Source: a virus
Direction: 5' to 3' (one strand)
Length of the DNA stretch: 64,000 bases
IMG/VR virus record: IMGVR_UViG_3300037067_022550
In this document: positions 2,663 through 11,043 of the stretch, in pieces
How the letters are laid out: every line of letters begins with the position of its first letter
How positions within the stretch are numbered: the first letter of the stretch is position 1
Translations under genes and position numbers: made by a program
Notes under the pieces: generated by a model
Seen by the model: the letters and a program-made list of their open reading frames with translations, nothing else
Databases searched by the model: none
What the model was told of the DNA's origin: nothing

Positions 2663-3325
2663 TTAAATATTTTTGCCACAACATTTTTTATATTTAATTG
2701 GTTCACCATTTATTTTTTTAGCCCCACAAGGACAAGGATCATTTCTTCCAACCTTAATCTTATTTCTCTCAATTGGTATACTCTTAACACAAAATTCTGT
2801 AATTATTTTCCCTTTAAAATGGTCAAGTTCATGCTGAATTGCTATTGTAACAATCTTATTGTCAACTAAGAACTTTTCATCATCCTTTTCTGTGGGATAA
2901 TTTAAATATATTTTATCTGTTATTAATATGTCCCCATCTATTCTATCATTTTCAATTACTAAATGTTTATATCTGTAAGTATTAAAAAACTGACCAGGAA
3001 ATGATAAACAACCTTCATTGAAAAACAAAAATTCTTCTTCCGCTTCAATAATTTTGGGATTAATTAGGCAAAAGTACTCCTTGCTGTTAAAAAACTCCTT
3101 TTTTAATACTGCAATTGTTTTAGGAATACCTATTTGAATGGCCGCTAACCCAACTCCATTTGGTTCATTATCTAATGTTGATTTGATATTTTCAACGATT
3201 TCTAGGGCTTCCTGGGCTGTTCTAACTGGTTCAGAAACTTGCTTTAAAACATTAATATCTCTAACTATTTTATTGAATCTCCCCACGAATGAATTCTGGG
3301 GATTCCTGATTACTAAGCTACACAT
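2663..3325 (-). CDS. def: peptide deformylase with C-terminal SEC-C metal-binding motif; 5' end overlaps the IS605 right end
   Basis: PDF motifs GVGLAAIQIG, EGCLSFPG and QHELDH. C-terminal DPCPCGAKK...KCCGKN resembles the SEC-C motif. The first 17 codons are encoded by the IS end hairpin sequence. Confidence 0.7.
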   Translation of the reverse strand: MCSLVIRNPQNSFVGRFNKIVRDINVLKQVSEPVRTAQEALEIVENIKSTLDNEPNGVGLAAIQIGIPKTIAVLKKEFFNSKEYFCLINPKIIEAEEEFLFFNEGCLSFPGQFFNTYRYKHLVIENDRIDGDILITDKIYLNYPTEKDDEKFLVDNKIVTIAIQHELDHFKGKIITEFCVKSIPIERNKIKVGRNDPCPCGAKKINGEPIKYKKCCGKNI

Positions 3326-3480
3326 AGTATAGCCTTTCTTTCGAGGCTTATTCCAAGCCCAGCATTGATAACTACCACGGCAGAATTAATATCTCTGTCG
3401 TGATCCGCCCCACAAGCGGAACATACCCAATGCCTTACCTTGAGCCCGCCCAATCCTGTGGGGCCGGTCAAAGCTCCGCA
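3284..3480 (-). ncRNA. putative omega (right-end) guide RNA of TnpB
   Basis: By the architecture of IS200/605 TnpB systems, the omega RNA overlaps the 3' end of tnpB and ends at the RE boundary. Only about 30 nt separate the tnpB stop from the RE hairpin. This is inferred and not seen directly. Confidence 0.3.
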
Positions 3481-4374
3481 GTCCGAACAGGTCATAGTGG
3501 TCTTTCTTGAATTTACCGGAATTATATTCCTACCGCAGATACTGCCCTTGTAGGTTATAAACTTTGCCAACTGTCCCAACCCAGCTTCCGTTACTGACTT
3601 GCCAAAAATTCCTGCTGCCATACCCTTAAAGTTGTCGTCACTGTAGCAAATGGTCTTGTAGTTTTCCACCAGCTTCCTGCTTATCTTATGGTTACGATCC
3701 AGTCTTCTATTAGCTTGCCTTTCCTGCAACCTTGCTGTCAACGCTTTTCTATGTCCTCTTTGAGCTTGAGCAAGGCGTTCTGCCCCTTTATGAAGCTCTC
3801 TAGGATTTTCGATCTTAGTGCCGTTGGACAAGGTTAGCAAGGTATCAAATCCAGGGTCTATTCCAACAGCAGTATTAGTTTCTTTGACTGTGAAAATATG
3901 TATTGTATCTAACCAAAGGCAGAGATACCAACCGGAAGCTTTCTTAACTATTCTACCGCACTTGATTTCTGCATTTGGCAATTCCTGTTTGACGAAGCGA
4001 ACTTTCTTCAATCCAGGAATACTAATTTTACCGTCCTTTGGTGGATTAATTGGATCTGGAAAGGGAATGGAATTGAACTTGTTGTGTCTTCCCTTGAGAT
4101 GTGGTTTCTTGGCTTGCTTTCTAAAACACTTTTTCCAAGCATCATAAACTTGAGATAGAGTTCCCTGAATAGTATGAGAAGGAATGCCTAGTTTCTTTCC
4201 GTGGTCAGCCAGTAAGTTGTGGAATGTCTTCTCAGAAAAGTAGATATTGTCTTTAGCATTAAGTTCTATTTTTTTAAGACCAAAGTTATATACACCCGTT
4301 AAGTTATTAAGCCATCCGTTTAGTGTTTGCTCTTGCTTCTTGGTTGGTCTAAGTTTTAGGGTTCTTACTATCAT
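3313..4374 (-). CDS. tnpB: TnpB (OrfB) RNA-guided nuclease-family protein
   Basis: 353 aa. C-terminal RuvC-III plus zinc ribbon (CSDCGALTG...HWVCSACGADHDRDINSAVVV). N-terminal OrfB helix-turn-helix-like region. Confidence 0.8.
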   Translation of the reverse strand: MIVRTLKLRPTKKQEQTLNGWLNNLTGVYNFGLKKIELNAKDNIYFSEKTFHNLLADHGKKLGIPSHTIQGTLSQVYDAWKKCFRKQAKKPHLKGRHNKFNSIPFPDPINPPKDGKISIPGLKKVRFVKQELPNAEIKCGRIVKKASGWYLCLWLDTIHIFTVKETNTAVGIDPGFDTLLTLSNGTKIENPRELHKGAERLAQAQRGHRKALTARLQERQANRRLDRNHKISRKLVENYKTICYSDDNFKGMAAGIFGKSVTEAGLGQLAKFITYKGSICGRNIIPVNSRKTTMTCSDCGALTGPTGLGGLKVRHWVCSACGADHDRDINSAVVVINAGLGISLERKAILCVA

Positions 4375-4784
4375 GTTTTTTTCTGTGCCTCTACATATTT
4401 TTTAATGGAAGACAAAGGATCACCACCAACTGTAGACAGGAAATAAGAATTTGTCCAAAGAGTGGGCAATCTAGTTCTCATCCACTTATATTCCTGTCTA
4501 AGATACTTAGATGATCTTCCTTTTAACTGCTTAACAAGTTTGTGTATTCCATATTGCGGATTGACTTCCACAAGCATATGAACATACTCTGGTAAAACTT
4601 CTAATGCCAAAATATCAGCTTGGCGTTCTTGACAAACTCCAGAAAGAATACTTTTAAGTCTTTTTTCAGAACCGTCAACTAAAACTTTCCTTTTGTATTT
4701 CGTACACCAAACGATGTGGTACTTTGATGAATAAACTACATTAAAACTAGACTTATAACCTTTCATACCTACATTATACCACAA
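4371..4784 (-). CDS. tnpA: IS200/IS605 Y1 (HUH) transposase TnpA
   Basis: 137 aa. YHIVWCTKYKRKVL (HuH) and Y-containing C-terminal half typical of IS200 TnpA. Confidence 0.8.
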   Translation of the reverse strand: MWYNVGMKGYKSSFNVVYSSKYHIVWCTKYKRKVLVDGSEKRLKSILSGVCQERQADILALEVLPEYVHMLVEVNPQYGIHKLVKQLKGRSSKYLRQEYKWMRTRLPTLWTNSYFLSTVGGDPLSSIKKYVEAQKKT

Positions 4785-5831: not shown

Positions 5832-6092
5832 TTATTTTAAAAAATCCTTAATATCTCTTATGGTAATATTTTGATTGAAAATAATTTTATTATCATTAAA
5901 AATAGCAAAAGGAACAGTATTTATATTAAAGTTAATTGATAAATTCATAGCTTCGTCCGAAATAGAATTTATCTTTTCTATTTTTATATTAATTTTTTTT
6001 TGTTGAACATAATCTTTTATTAAATTAAACAAAATATTGCAATCTTTGCAGTTGTCTGCTCCTATAATTTTAATTATGTTATTTTTGAGCAT
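5832..6092 (-). CDS. glutaredoxin/NrdH-like redoxin
   Basis: CKDC active-site pair and TVP cis-Pro motif of the thioredoxin fold; 86 aa. Confidence 0.5.
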   Translation of the reverse strand: MLKNNIIKIIGADNCKDCNILFNLIKDYVQQKKINIKIEKINSISDEAMNLSINFNINTVPFAIFNDNKIIFNQNITIRDIKDFLK

Positions 6093-6652
6093 ATGTCTAT
6101 AGGGGTATTTTTTATTTTAATATCATAAACTTCTCGTACTTTATCTAAATCTTTTTCGTTTTTAATGTGCAGTAACCAATCATCTTTTTTTATTTCTTCT
6201 TCAATTACATCAATACAAAAGGTTATAGGCATGAATGGAAAAGATTTAATGTATTGGTTACTACTTATTCCAGAAGATGTTGTTCCGTGCCATGTCGTTC
6301 CTTTTTGGGTTTTCCAAGAAATGGCATGTATATAATATGCTTGTCCGTCTTTACCTTCTTTAAATACTGCTGAATTTCTATTATTTTGATAACAATTTGT
6401 TTCTACATTGATAAGATTCCATTCATCATCTTTTCCGTTTAGGGGAGTAATGGTTTCATAATTTGACAATTTATTAAATATTCTTCTAACCATGCTTGCC
6501 GAACCTCCGCTATGCCCTTGATTAGAAAAAACATCAATTAATTCTATAACTGCTTCTCCTATTCCGCCATTATAATCACTATCTTTGTCAAACAATCCTG
6601 CCACTTGCAATTCTTTTCTTGCATGTTTTAATAAATTCGATTCTTCTTTCAT
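6074..6652 (-). CDS. hypothetical protein
   Basis: 192-aa ORF, tiled with neighbours (4-nt overlap). Confidence 0.4.
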   Translation of the reverse strand: MKEESNLLKHARKELQVAGLFDKDSDYNGGIGEAVIELIDVFSNQGHSGGSASMVRRIFNKLSNYETITPLNGKDDEWNLINVETNCYQNNRNSAVFKEGKDGQAYYIHAISWKTQKGTTWHGTTSSGISSNQYIKSFPFMPITFCIDVIEEEIKKDDWLLHIKNEKDLDKVREVYDIKIKNTPIDICSKIT

Positions 6653-6903: not shown

Positions 6904-7695
6904 TCACATTACTTTCTTTTCTAATAATTGTGGTACAACATTTTTCTCTAATATTTTAATAAAATCTTCCAATGCATCTTTTTTGGCAGCTAAAGAAAAA
7001 CTAGTCAAGTTAGCTAACCATTCTTCCCCAAAGAAAAGAAATAATAACCAATCGTGAATCGTTCTATAGTTCCACCTTGCCCCTATCTTATGTTCAATGT
7101 CTTCTTTTAGTGTTAAGTCGTTTTTAATAAGTAAATGAAGATCTAATTTATCTAATGCGCTATACATACTATTTATTTGCTCAATAGACAATGTTTCCTT
7201 GTTTTTTCTTTTAACAAATTCACATTGGGTATTTAATGGAACTTGTTCTTTTGGTAGATGAAGGGCATTAGCAACAGTTTCTGCTCTTTTGTCATAGACA
7301 TCTTTAGGCCAAAGACCGTATAATCTGCAACCAAGCGGGCGTTTTGAATATAATAAACAATCTTTTTCTTTAATCATTGGGCAAGGTTTAATCAAACTCT
7401 TGGAAAAGAAATACTTAATAGCTGTTACCAATAGTTTTGTTTTATCTTCCTTACTCCAATTTGTCCAAATATCATCTATAACAGAAACGGCTTCAGAATA
7501 GTTCATTTGTGGACAAGCAACCCTGCAACAATTACATTGTCTTAAACAGGTGGTTGCTAAATCCCCATGTAAGTTATAAATACTATTAAGTTCTTCTTCT
7601 AGGGTTTTGTTGGAAGAAACTTTTACTTTAAGTTTTTTGGGTTGTTTCTTAGGGGGATGTTTATTGTAACTAAATACTTTTTTGCCTTTTTTCAT
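6904..7695 (-). CDS. Cys-rich protein (YkgJ-like putative Fe-S/Zn-binding domain)
   Basis: CLRQCNCCRVACPQ cluster near the N-terminal third. Confidence 0.35.
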   Translation of the reverse strand: MKKGKKVFSYNKHPPKKQPKKLKVKVSSNKTLEEELNSIYNLHGDLATTCLRQCNCCRVACPQMNYSEAVSVIDDIWTNWSKEDKTKLLVTAIKYFFSKSLIKPCPMIKEKDCLLYSKRPLGCRLYGLWPKDVYDKRAETVANALHLPKEQVPLNTQCEFVKRKNKETLSIEQINSMYSALDKLDLHLLIKNDLTLKEDIEHKIGARWNYRTIHDWLLFLFFGEEWLANLTSFSLAAKKDALEDFIKILEKNVVPQLLEKKVM

Positions 7696-7793
7696 ATTTT
7701 ACTCTCCAATTTATTGACATAATTTAAAAATACAAAATATATTATACATAAAAAAAATAATAATGTATAATATATTTAATAAGGAGAATATTA

Positions 7794-8780
7794 ATGCATC
7801 CAAATTATAAGAATTATGATTATAAAGATCCTCTATTTGTGACTAGTTCAAAAGCATGGTGCTCTGTTTGTAAAAATGAAGATCCTCAAAAACCAACTTG
7901 TACAAACTGTAAGGGAACTGGTTATCAACCGCTAAATCTGAATGGCTTATGGTATCCATCTTCTGGTTTTCTTGTTTGCGGAGGACCTAGTATCAATAAA
8001 TTGCCATATCAAAGATTAAGAGAAAGAGGAATTGTTTCTTTAGCCGTAAATAATGTTGCTGCTTATGTACCAGTAACAGCATTTTGCTTTAGCGATCCAC
8101 AAACTAAATTTCATCACGGATTATTTTTAGATCCAAAATGTTTAACTTTTGCCCCAATCCCAAAATTAAGGCATCATATTGTTGCAAAGTTGCCAAATAA
8201 AAAATTTCAAGGCATGGATGCTAGAATAAGACATTGCCCATCTTCTTTTGGATTTTCTAGGCAAACGACATTTTCTGCAGAAAGCTTTTTAACAAGCGAA
8301 ACTGCATATTGGGGAAGAGGAGGAAAACAACCTGGCAATGACAATCCCTTCCAATGCTTATGCACAATGCTCCTTGGTTTTAGATTAATGCATTATTTAG
8401 GTTGTCCTAGAATATATTTGTTAGGAGTTGATTTTTGGATGGAAGAAGGCAAGCAAAATTATGCTTTTAAACAAGAAAAGACAGCAAGAAATGGGAGATA
8501 TAAAAATGAAAACTCCTATTTAAATGAATTAAAACCAATATTTGATAAAGCAGGATTTGAAGTTTTTAATTGCAACAAAGAATCAAAATGCGATGCTTTT
8601 CAATATGTCCCCTTTGATGAAGCACTAGAAGATTGCAGGGGTGGAGTTCCGATAGAGCCATTTGATACCGAAAATTATTACTCCAAGAGCATTGCCGAGA
8701 AAGACATGAAGGAAAACCCCAAAACGATCAGTATCGCAGAATTAGCCGAAATACAACAAAAATACAAAATGTCATCTTAA
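7794..8780 (+). CDS. hypothetical protein, DUF115/MptE-like (LVCGGPS motif); target of HNH endonuclease insertion
   Basis: AGGAG RBS at 7778. N-terminal CxxC...CxxC and GGPS motif. The 3' end is duplicated at 9752-9814. Confidence 0.45.
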   Translation: MHPNYKNYDYKDPLFVTSSKAWCSVCKNEDPQKPTCTNCKGTGYQPLNLNGLWYPSSGFLVCGGPSINKLPYQRLRERGIVSLAVNNVAAYVPVTAFCFSDPQTKFHHGLFLDPKCLTFAPIPKLRHHIVAKLPNKKFQGMDARIRHCPSSFGFSRQTTFSAESFLTSETAYWGRGGKQPGNDNPFQCLCTMLLGFRLMHYLGCPRIYLLGVDFWMEEGKQNYAFKQEKTARNGRYKNENSYLNELKPIFDKAGFEVFNCNKESKCDAFQYVPFDEALEDCRGGVPIEPFDTENYYSKSIAEKDMKENPKTISIAELAEIQQKYKMSS

Positions 8781-8837
8781 TTTAATCCATTATGTATAAA
8801 TTAATGGGTTATAAAAAGTTTAATAATATTTATAAAA

Positions 8838-9659
8838 TTACACATCAAAAGAGCCATCTGGTTTAATATGTCCTCCCCATCCAGTTCCATCTGTTAGACC
8901 TTCATGTTCATCAATTCCTTCTCTACAACCAGGTGTTTTTAACAACAATTTATTAACCACAGAAATAATTTTAACATCGCGATGTTGTGCATGAATAATA
9001 CGATGACAATTAGAACATATTAAGATGCATTTATTGAGTTCATTTTTAAGAACTCTCCATTTGCCATTTAATACTTCACTTATTGGTCTGTCCTTATCTC
9101 CGTTGCAATGATGAAAATCAAAAACATCATAATTATCATTATTTGCTTTTAATTTACACACGAAACAAACTCCTCCTTTATAAGAAATTGCTCTAACTTT
9201 TGATAATAATCTGTGAATTTTACTATAACAAGTTTGACAAAATTTCCGTTTCCTTTTCTGGTCTATAGGGTATTGTTTTTGGCATAAACTACAAGCAGAT
9301 GGAACAACAACATTAGATTTTCTTGGATACCATCCTATCTCACTAATTGGTATTTTCCACTTGTCTATGCAAAAACGAACAAAAGATTCACCTAACCTAA
9401 GACGTTGCCTTGTTCCATGTATGCCATATTTTTTTAAATGTATTCTTAAAATATTTTCATTAACAGATCGAATGGCAGTTTCATATTTAATGCGAATAGC
9501 ACGTTTTTGACGTTCAATTCCTTTTTTATATTGTTGTTCGGGAGTTAATTTAATATCATTTGCATAATATTTGGCTCTACGTTCTGGAATACCAAGTATT
9601 TCTCCTATTTCTGCCATACCATATCCTTGTCTACGTAATTCTCTAGCTTTTTCTTTCAT
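8838..9659 (-). CDS. HNH homing endonuclease with N-terminal HTH
   Basis: HHCNGDKDRP...NLQ..CSNCHRIIH (HNH) and multiple CxxC. Confidence 0.65.
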   Translation of the reverse strand: MKEKARELRRQGYGMAEIGEILGIPERRAKYYANDIKLTPEQQYKKGIERQKRAIRIKYETAIRSVNENILRIHLKKYGIHGTRQRLRLGESFVRFCIDKWKIPISEIGWYPRKSNVVVPSACSLCQKQYPIDQKRKRKFCQTCYSKIHRLLSKVRAISYKGGVCFVCKLKANNDNYDVFDFHHCNGDKDRPISEVLNGKWRVLKNELNKCILICSNCHRIIHAQHRDVKIISVVNKLLLKTPGCREGIDEHEGLTDGTGWGGHIKPDGSFDV

Positions 9660-9751
9660 ATGTTCCCCTTCCTTATTGGTTCTGTAACATTTGCATATTA
9701 TTCTCTATTATGGGGACAAAATCCTTTAATAATTAGTTCTGAAATATATGA

Positions 9752-9814
9752 ATAAAAACCCCAAAAACGATTAGCATAGCAGAATTGGCAAAAATTCAAC
9801 AAATGAAATCATAG
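9752..9814 (+). pseudogene. duplicated 3'-terminal remnant of gene 7794-8780 (homing footprint)
   Basis: Encodes KTPKTISIAELAKIQQMKS*, which matches ENPKTISIAELAEIQQKYKMSS* at 8712-8780. Confidence 0.6.
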
Positions 9815-10519
9815 TTGATTAATATATTCTTCTGGAAGCAATCTTCTTTCCCCGCGATAATTTCCGTTTGGAGAATAAAAACAATGGGCTTTGGGATTAT
9901 ATTTATAACATTCGCAAGTTCTGAATAACCAGCTTTCATACCAAAATCTTTTTATTCTTTTCCTACACACTACTGCTTTATAATCTAATACTGGAGTTAA
10001 TTTCTTTATATAGTCACTATTTGCCCACCAGAAATTTCCTAAAAAGTTCTTCCTTTTTCTATAACAAATTCCACAACAATCTACCCCTTCATCTAATTTC
10101 TTAATACAATCTTGCCATTTTAAAATATTGAAATATTCCATGCATTTACGCCAATCTGTAACTAATATTCTATCTTCACTATAAAGTGGAGATGAAATCC
10201 CTTTTGAATGAAAATATAAAACATAACTATTGTTTAAATCACAAAATTCTTTTAACCAAAATAAAGTAACATATTCAAAACAATTTTCTGTAGAATTCCT
10301 CATTTCTATTTTATTAACAGATGTATATTTTTTAATCATTTGCGGAAACCATAAATAAAATTTATCAATTTCAGTTTTAGTTCCTACAACACCAATATGC
10401 ATTTTATTGCATCTGTCATATAACCCAGACTTATAAACGCTATTAAATTGTTCCTCACACAATTCCATCCAATTATTAACAGCATAAACATGATAAAAAA
10501 TATTTATATCCTTATACAT
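9809..10519 (-). CDS. hypothetical protein
   Basis: 236-aa ORF, Cys/Trp/Tyr-rich; sits in the sugar-modification neighbourhood. Confidence 0.4.
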   Translation of the reverse strand: MYKDINIFYHVYAVNNWMELCEEQFNSVYKSGLYDRCNKMHIGVVGTKTEIDKFYLWFPQMIKKYTSVNKIEMRNSTENCFEYVTLFWLKEFCDLNNSYVLYFHSKGISSPLYSEDRILVTDWRKCMEYFNILKWQDCIKKLDEGVDCCGICYRKRKNFLGNFWWANSDYIKKLTPVLDYKAVVCRKRIKRFWYESWLFRTCECYKYNPKAHCFYSPNGNYRGERRLLPEEYINQL

Positions 10520-10533
10520 TTATAATTCCACCT

Positions 10534-11043
10534 TTATTTTTTAAATACTCCCACCAAATCTCCCCATCTACTTGTTTCATCTCTCCATAATTCAATAAGG
10601 TTTACTTTAGCATATTTAGCAAGTGCAGTATAACTGTCTGGATAAAATCTATAACAATCAACTGGAAACCTATGAATTCCTCCAGACGAAGGAGATATTA
10701 AAAATAAATATCCTTCTTTTTTAAGAATCCTATTCATTTCTAAAAAAGATTCCCAAAAAAATTCGCAATGTTCAAACGTTTGTCCAGAAATAACAACATC
10801 AATTGAATTTGATGCAAATGGATAATGATATGGATCTTTTAAAACAACATCAACTCCTTTGCCACTAGATAAATCTATGCCTATATACTTTATTTTATCG
10901 TTTTTAAATATTGATCTGTATGAACCATTAATATTTGCAGATCCGACATCTACAAGAGTTATAGATTCTTTTTTATCTAAAAAATCACCCAGAACATATT
11001 TTTCGTAGCAAATTTTCATATTATTTAGGCTGGTTTTATGCAT
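10534..11043 (-). CDS. SAM-dependent methyltransferase (FkbM-like)
   Basis: LVDVGSANINGSY motif I-like; 169 aa. Confidence 0.45.
   Translation of the reverse strand: MHKTSLNNMKICYEKYVLGDFLDKKESITLVDVGSANINGSYRSIFKNDKIKYIGIDLSSGKGVDVVLKDPYHYPFASNSIDVVISGQTFEHCEFFWESFLEMNRILKKEGYLFLISPSSGGIHRFPVDCYRFYPDSYTALAKYAKVNLIELWRDETSRWGDLVGVFKK

Follow-up and report, generated by a model that had tools for sequence, protein, structure and literature searches.

The stretch of viral DNA analysed here (IMG/VR virus record IMGVR_UViG_3300037067_022550; 64,000 nucleotides, hereafter the window) carries a gene for a putative glycosyltransferase (positions 7794-8780, plus strand; 328 amino acids, intact) whose 3' end is found twice. 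The first copy (copy A, 8700-8780) is the working end of the gene, the second (copy B, 9742-9814, plus strand) is now non-coding, and a gene for an HNH endonuclease lies between them in the opposite orientation (8838-9659, minus strand; 273 amino acids). It is likely that this free-standing homing-endonuclease gene invaded the 3' end of the phage glycosyltransferase gene by one-sided homing. As for the replacement end, import from another lineage is much more probable than regeneration. This reading is supported by the presence and absence of the insertion at one locus, by the apparently resident character of copy B and foreign character of copy A, by signs of co-conversion, by the decay of copy B and by the family of the HNH protein.

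An initial annotation, made from the letters of the window, had described the locus as an endonuclease-gene invasion that either carried or regenerated a replacement 3' exon. The invasion is supported by the alignment of the two gene ends and by an allele with an empty site, and of the two routes the first is the more probable. The term exon does not apply, because no intron was found in an Rfam scan and the HNH gene is a free-standing open reading frame (ORF) on the opposite strand. The relatives compared below are numbered loci (L001 and following); L009 and L010 are two identical copies of the window locus from independent assemblies.

A gene end present twice

Copy A makes up the last 27 codons of the glycosyltransferase gene and ends with KDMKENPKTISIAELAEIQQKYKMSS and a stop codon. 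It recurs in copy B at ~82% identity with a single one-nucleotide insertion or deletion (indel). Local alignment of 8690-8800 with 9730-9830 extends over 63 columns, including the one-nucleotide indel, and scores 64. Alignment of the tail to 1000 dinucleotide shuffles of 8781-10100 gives a mean score of 19.7 (standard deviation 2.4, maximum 31; z = 18.7), and the top score elsewhere in the window, on either strand, is 28. Among ~100 loci of the gene family, a second tail within 3.5 kb downstream is found only in the window and in L009 and L010; the runner-up scores are 29 for nucleotides and 45 for protein, the latter in low-complexity sequence, versus 64 and 62 in the window. No tail or head duplication was detected in the other family loci, including the region upstream of an HNH homologue in L011.

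The high A+T content of the window (30% G+C) and the shortness of the repeat could favour a fortuitous or low-complexity similarity; copy B might also be the end of a separate paralogue. Either origin is next to impossible given the distance of the score from those of the shuffles and from any other place in the window or the family loci. Furthermore, the homology ends at 9742, stop codons lie upstream, the window holds no second copy of the gene, and copy B is orthologous to the genuine end of a gene in locus L129. The repeat reported by the initial annotation at 8712-8780 and 9752-9814 is thus real and the translations quoted for it are correct, although the homology begins ~12 nucleotides further upstream in both copies, at 8700 and 9742.

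The run 9760-9767 of copy B (CCCC AAAAA) is one base longer than its counterpart in copy A (CCCC AAAA). The translation of copy B, KTPKTISIAELAKIQQMKS followed by a stop codon, holds only 3' of this indel, while the 5' part (KYMNKNP) belongs to another frame. Stop codons precede both frames and there is no start codon, so copy B is not translated in any gene. The sequence of copy B is identical in the two independent assemblies L009 and L010. Initially placed downstream of the HNH gene, copy B is found 82 nucleotides 5' of the start codon when read on the strand of that gene, and the working tail 57 nucleotides past its stop codon.

The site without insertion was found by a search with the protein of the right-flank gene, which lies outside the insertion (9809-10519, minus strand; 236 amino acids, DUF8361, Pfam PF27674 by a precomputed match). 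Three samples each have a short contig (L129, L130 and L131) that encodes an 87%-identical homologue, P0127. In L129 the P0127 gene converges on a partial ORF orthologous to the glycosyltransferase gene and there is no HNH gene. This allele contains GCATGGCTGAAAAAGACATGAAAGAAAATCCTCAAACCATTAGTATCGCAGAGTTGGCAAAAATTCAACAAATAAAATCATAG and ends with KENPQTISIAELAKIQQIKS and a stop codon (AELAKIQQIKS), an end of the type of copy B (AELAKIQQMKS). Copy A terminates with KYKMSS, an ending present in no other family member (A-type end, GCCGAAATACAACAAAAATACAAAATGTCATCTTAA). The stop codon of the L129 gene overlaps that of its neighbour by 6 nucleotides, as copy B does at 9809-9814, and the same converging arrangement is found in L131. 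In the window it is the stop codon of the right-flank gene (9809-9811) that overlaps the stop of copy B, an overlap that marks the ancestral gene junction.

In blastn alignments, window 8182-8760 maps to positions 1-579 of the reverse complement of L129 (91.2% nucleotide identity) and window 9742-10524 to positions 519-1297 (85.8%). Both copies in the window therefore correspond to the single L129 tail, and 8700 and 9742 to the same L129 position. Compared to its closest relative lacking the HNH gene, the window has exactly 1,042 extra bases. These comprise the new tail 8700-8780, a spacer of 57 nucleotides between the converging stop codons (8781-8837, missing from L129), the HNH gene and its leader of 82 nucleotides (9660-9741, minus strand), which forms the right end of the insertion. 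The extra bases separate the gene body from the original last 24 codons of the gene, and the stub 9742-9814 still abuts the original neighbour.

From 9742 on the window is collinear with L129, and left of this position it has no similarity to it. The collinearity of copy B with L129 continues past the stop codon into the adjoining gene, with one mismatch in the last 30 nucleotides of copy B. The right junction at 9741/9742 is uncertain by ~6 nucleotides, since CTGAAA is common to the empty-site allele. On the other side, locus L087 matches the left neighbour and the first 117 codons of the gene at 90-97% nucleotide identity. L087 and L129 come from one sample, so the same phage lacking the HNH gene is closest on both sides.

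Alleles lacking the HNH gene are thus present in three samples (L129-L131) and alleles carrying it in the window, L009 and L010, at 86-92% identity of the flanks. In the more distant L001-L008 the gene also abuts a converging gene and the HNH gene is likewise missing. The related genomes with an uninterrupted gene that the initial annotation had suggested looking for therefore exist, and its view that the HNH gene sits between a functional terminus and a degenerate copy agrees with the single copy-B-type tail of L129. Since copy B is collinear with L129 while copy A ends differently, copy B would be the resident end and copy A the replacement. Copy B thus appears to be the resident tail of the gene, now frameshifted and rich in non-synonymous changes.

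Many phage HNH homing endonucleases are intron-encoded and two in-phase tails could suggest alternative products; the HNH gene might accordingly lie in a self-splicing intron, or the tails be alternative carboxyl termini obtained by splicing or frameshifting. Such an arrangement is scarcely plausible here. The Rfam scan of 7600-10000 at E <= 1 gave no group I or group II intron and no other RNA family, the HNH ORF is on the opposite strand, the glycosyltransferase gene is complete and closed by the stop codon at 8778-8780, and copy B is internally frameshifted and has no start codon.

Probable origin of the replacement end and proposed course of the insertion

The window and L129 diverge by 6.9% in the gene body and by 14% in the right flank. 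Copies A and B differ at 11 of 60 nucleotides (18%), which exceeds both values and equals the distance between separate lineages. A distance above the divergence of the flanks argues for an origin of copy A in another lineage and against a local duplication. Tandem duplication in situ of the last 80 nucleotides of the gene, followed by divergence and by an independent insertion of the HNH gene between the copies, would account for direct repeats in the same orientation ~1 kb apart. This course of events is very improbable: with flanks 7-14% from the empty-site relative and copies 18% apart, the copies would predate the separation from a lineage without the duplication, and two independent events would be needed at one spot.

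The nature of the differences also speaks against a local duplication. In the 14-codon core PKTISIAELAxIQQ, with the indel placed in the run of copy A, there are 7 differences between A and B and 6 of them are synonymous, unlike the outcome of neutral drift after such an event. Random substitutions in the core would be synonymous in ~21% of cases, giving a binomial probability of ~4e-4 (hand calculation). The single amino acid difference (E/K) is also polymorphic among working orthologues. When changes are polarised, those specific to copy A are 4 synonymous and 1 non-synonymous, and those specific to L129 likewise 4 and 1. Besides the indel, changes specific to copy B affect 5 nucleotides, of which 3 fall in non-synonymous codons (D>Y, E>K). 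This pattern suggests that copy A and the L129 tail diverged as functional gene ends, and that decay of copy B has set in.

Sites within copy B are sorted along its length. At 9757-9769 (codons NPKT) copies A and B agree and L129 departs from them at 4 of 12 nucleotides; from 9785 on copy B agrees with L129 where copy A differs. Gene conversion between the repeats after the insertion may have produced this pattern, or changes private to L129; a runs test for clustering of A-like and L129-like sites gives p ~0.17 (hand-computed).

The divergence between the window and L129 rises shortly before copy A. Identity is 93.1% over 8182-8661 and 81.8% over 8662-8760, a 2.6-fold increase in divergence from 6.9% to 18.2% (Fisher p = 8e-4). 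A single change point is best placed at 8681, where the mismatches go from 7.2% to 21% (twice the log-likelihood difference, 13). The rise from ~8681 may reflect a short co-conversion tract that reaches ~20-40 nucleotides into the gene body, so that the donor-derived stretch, which takes in copy A, would span 8681-8780. Sliding-window identity to distant relatives lacking the HNH gene (L001, L006, L013, L016 and others) is ~80% throughout, shows no breakpoint and is uninformative for polarity.

The mechanism that best fits these features combines homologous invasion on the side of the gene with illegitimate joining at 9741/9742. The endonuclease, or a related double-strand break, would have opened a genome lacking the HNH gene in or near codon 303. 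The left end would then be resected by a few tens of bases and invade a more divergent, co-infecting donor phage with the HNH gene just after its homologous gene. Repair synthesis would copy the donor gene end, the HNH gene and the leader. The new strand would be attached to the right end of the break by illegitimate or microhomology joining, because the donor sequence beyond the leader would have lacked homology to the recipient. The region downstream of the gene differs in every relative examined, and homology on the right side would therefore be lacking. The outcome would be an intact host gene with its old end left behind as a diverged direct repeat, and the change of sequence at the original site presumably protects the genome from being cut again.

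Several observations weigh against this interpretation. Over the first 60 nucleotides copies A and B are equally far from L129, every pairwise distance among the three being 11/60, so that the resident status of copy B rests on its collinearity and its last 30 nucleotides. The 5' third of copy B matches copy A where L129 differs, through later gene conversion or L129-specific changes. The tail evolves faster in all pairs, and the co-conversion excess corrected for this effect is marginal (binomial p = 0.06). The phage of L087 and L129 has an extra small ORF upstream of the gene, unlike the window, and would be a close relative and not the exact ancestor. No donor genome with an A-type tail was found in searches of phage genomes, of IMG/VR and of the family members: blastn of 7000-11000 versus 50,697 deposited phage genomes gave no match, an exact-peptide scan of IMG/VR with the window protein gave no close relative, and a profile scan of IMG/VR gave only relatives of <=54% identity.

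The locus might also be the scar of a module exchange in which the HNH gene was simply carried along. Two related phages would have crossed over illegitimately, without any endonuclease break, at the boundary of a variable sugar-modification module, so that the gene and the HNH gene of one parent were joined to the gene stub and the downstream genes of the other. The differences downstream of the gene in every relative examined make the gene end a module boundary, nuclease genes are known to lie at the borders of segments that phages exchange (PMC10448857), and the case for cleavage by a homing enzyme at this site is drawn from sequence. An exchange of this kind is nonetheless rather unlikely, given that both flanks are closest to the same relative, L087/L129 from one sample (91-92% on the left, 86-92% on the right). 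This makes a simple insertion of 1,042 base pairs more parsimonious than a join of two parents. The divergent patch is also limited to ~100 nucleotides beside the HNH gene. The outcome of such an exchange differs from that of one-sided homing only in the maker of the break.

The two proteins and the variable surroundings of the gene

The HNH protein features an amino-terminal helix-turn-helix, a CxxC...CxxC zinc ribbon and a carboxyl-terminal Cys4 HNH motif (FDFHHCNGDKD...N...CSNCHRIIH). The aligned motif reads C-F-V-C ... FDFHH-C-N ... N-E-L-N-K-C ... C-S-N-C-H-R-I-I-H; the catalytic His...Asn...His, as read from this alignment, is framed by two CxxC pairs for zinc, and the motif is kept in every full-length homologue. 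PHROG matches are phrog_2255 'HNH endonuclease' (6.9e-19), phrog_3106 (1.4e-9) and phrog_35854 (2.3e-9). The family profile matches the HNH motif of McrA (6ghc, E 0.0018) and helix-turn-helix domains, and no HNH model of Pfam matches the protein at E <= 10. Its structure model has a predicted local distance difference test score (pLDDT) of 75.5 and a predicted template modelling score of 0.41; the top Foldseek matches are T4 endonuclease VII, Cap5 HNH and Cas9 HNH, all non-significant (E >= 0.3). The protein has 5 homologues besides itself among 5.8 billion proteins, the nearest at 54% identity, and the presence of the gene among relatives is very sporadic.

The HNH gene is an ORF of its own with translation signals, located on the opposite strand to its host gene and 57 nucleotides past the stop codon of the latter. 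A strong Shine-Dalgarno sequence, AAGGAAGGGG, is found directly 5' of its ATG. The leader 9660-9741 revealed no convincing promoter on the minus strand, promoter-like sites being at shuffle expectation. For this reason the HNH gene may be expressed by read-through from the upstream gene 9809-10519, which has the same orientation, as with several T4 seg and mob genes. In the spacer 8781-8837 a promoter and terminator scan gave no terminator-like site, and a 10-base-pair hairpin (8783-8811) is no better than in shuffles (z = -0.8).

The glycosyltransferase is complete in length when compared to 283 metagenome homologues, retains every family-invariant residue and has a Cys4 zinc ribbon at its amino terminus. 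Its AlphaFold model has a pLDDT of 90.4. The best Foldseek matches are the Maf glycosyltransferase 5mu5 (E 7.8e-4, probability 0.98) and CstII 1ro7 (probability 0.99); over the Maf and CstII/Cst-I sialyltransferase matches the probabilities are 0.94-0.99 but the template modelling scores are low (0.32-0.42). A weak PHROG match to phrog_4603 'alpha-2,3-sialyltransferase' (9.7e-7) agrees with these folds. Pfam gave no match and a sequence search of the PDB only one weak sialyltransferase match (E 0.2). The protein is thus a putative Maf/GT42-like (sialyl- or nonulosonate-transferase-like) glycosyltransferase. In the model the tail is folded as helices 298-307 and 314-327, and the replaced residues 303-328 make up most of these last two helices, predicted with high confidence. 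The incoming tail is therefore predicted to keep the host gene whole by giving a complete, in-frame and structured carboxyl-terminal helix.

Nuclease genes accompany this glycosyltransferase gene in other phages. In L011 a homologue of the HNH protein (50-53% identity), split by a frameshift (1176-2004 and 2011-2451), is encoded 8 nucleotides upstream of a glycosyltransferase gene of the same family (54% identity) and in the same orientation. Another phage thus has the nuclease family of the window beside the 5' end of the gene. In L013, with a glycosyltransferase 89% identical at the protein level, the place of the window HNH gene is taken by an unrelated gene for an endonuclease VII-like/HNH-like protein of 252 amino acids (3534-4292, minus strand; phrog_1035, 4.8e-15), 24 nucleotides past the glycosyltransferase stop codon. 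The L013 contig stops 93 nucleotides beyond the nuclease gene and is unusable as a second example of a displaced tail.

A broader and tentative proposal, which we hold to be somewhat doubtful, is that the HNH gene may take a surrogate carboxyl terminus for its target along with it and reach new lineages through one-sided homing, as a natural phage counterpart of the fungal mitochondrial elements discussed below. Position 9742, where the stub begins on its left, would then record where the DNA was cleaved or resected. The 3' junction of the gene would be a recurrent site for unrelated nucleases, namely the window HNH protein and the endonuclease VII-like protein of L013, with the HNH homologue of L011 at the 5' end of the gene.

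The contig of L011 shows a fall in G+C from ~65% to ~40% near position 800. The 5' junction of the gene is also variable among close relatives. Three of them, but not the window, have 0.3-1.3 kb of extra small ORFs (L013 1484-2382, L038 901-2080 and L087 1403-1726) separating the homologue of 6904-7695, which is the left neighbour, from the 5' end of the gene; an ORF of ~108 amino acids is common to L038 and L087. On the right, the window segment 9809-11043 (minus strand) codes the DUF8361 protein (236 amino acids) and a Methyltransf_11 protein (169 amino acids). The equivalent position of L001 (1236-2438, minus strand) has one methyltransferase-type ORF of 400 amino acids with no detectable homology to either of them, and the L001 homologue of the DUF8361 gene is 3 kb off on the other strand. 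The gene order of L001 compared to the window points to reshuffling of the sugar-modification module among relatives.

The window derives from a large phage; an identical HNH protein is also encoded by a 264-kb contig, and the neighbours in the window include genes for a phage tube protein, a Tad3 anti-Thoeris homologue and sugar modification. The Tad3 homologue (6074-6652, minus strand; inhibitor of type I Thoeris, Pfam PF25185, E 7.5e-37) is an anti-defence gene positioned two genes upstream of the glycosyltransferase gene. Further left, a pair of IS200/IS605-type genes (c. 3313-4374 and 4371-4766, both on the minus strand) codes the Y1 transposase TnpA and TnpB (OrfB_IS605/Cas12f-like TNB). 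The pair lies between the peptide deformylase and radical-SAM genes, which are adjacent without it in L006 and L007. This adjacency identifies the pair as a second mobile-element insertion less than 5 kb from the HNH gene.

Comparison with known systems

The process proposed here is a known one and the locus reveals no new kind of element or mechanism. Its interest is that of a clear natural record of the way in which a free-standing homing endonuclease gene would enter a lineage with one homologous flank only. The record comprises the empty-site allele, the filled allele, a short probable co-conversion tract, an apparently illegitimate right junction and the displaced gene end, which would date the event as recent. 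The predicted target of the enzyme is the last 80 nucleotides of the allele lacking the HNH gene. No phage example described in these terms was found in the limited literature covered, which is no proof of novelty.

The seg and mob genes of T4-like phages (mobE, SegG, SegF; 'intronless homing') offer a parallel. As in the window, a nuclease gene is intergenic, present or absent among close relatives and located beside a conserved gene that is presumably cut; the flanks are co-converted, as may also be the case in the window, and the gene is possibly promoter-less and expressed by read-through (PMC2988022). Classical seg and mob insertions differ in being clean between genes and are not reported to duplicate a gene end, and mobE of Aeh1 splits nrdA without duplication. 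The window enzyme is also distinct in its architecture of helix-turn-helix, zinc ribbon and carboxyl-terminal HNH, which matches no Pfam model, and its homing role is predicted from sequence.

One-sided homing of the T4 td intron is, together with the fungal gene hybrids described below, the closest precedent. Experiments on this intron demonstrated such homing, the illegitimate junctions lying at microhomologies, according to PMC2988022 citing Parker et al. 1999. In that system homology on one side suffices for acquisition of the element and the other junction forms at a microhomology. Such a mechanism predicts retained recipient sequence exactly as observed at 9742-9814. The td case is an engineered plasmid-phage system with an intron-borne GIY-YIG enzyme, whereas the window would record a natural event with a free-standing HNH gene.

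Integrases that insert elements into the 3' end of tRNA or protein genes (attL/attR) produce a similar layout, in which the element restores the gene end and the old end becomes the far direct repeat. The window differs by the lack of an integrase, the size of the element (only 1 kb) and repeats that are 82% identical and have no identical crossover core. Its proposed mechanism is break repair and not site-specific recombination.

The layout itself is matched by the 'gene hybrids' made by mobile ORFs of fungal mitochondria, first described for atp6 of Allomyces macrogynus (Paquin, Laforest and Lang 1994) and later for atp6, atp9, cox2 and nad3 of Glomus (PMC3630166). In Endoconidiophora, cob and atp6 similarly have carboxyl-terminal duplications flanked by LAGLIDADG or GIY-YIG ORFs (PMC6279837). 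Gene hybrids consist of the gene core, a foreign in-phase carboxyl-terminal segment, the endonuclease ORF and the displaced, untranslated native carboxyl terminus. The window has this order, with 8700-8780 in frame, then the HNH gene 8838-9659, then the stub 9742-9814. In both settings the inserted and native ends differ in nucleotides yet are nearly identical as protein, and a close relative has an uninterrupted gene.

The window is unlike gene hybrids in that the host is a bacteriophage, the enzyme is HNH and not LAGLIDADG or GIY-YIG, and the duplicated piece is only ~80 nucleotides. The endonuclease ORF of gene hybrids is co-oriented with the gene and often fused to it in frame, in contrast to the HNH ORF of the window, which is on the opposite strand and not fused. 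The relation is best viewed as a likeness in layout and logic, and not as strict membership. On this analogy, the solution of fungal mitochondrial elements, to carry their own replacement gene end, would also occur in large phages.

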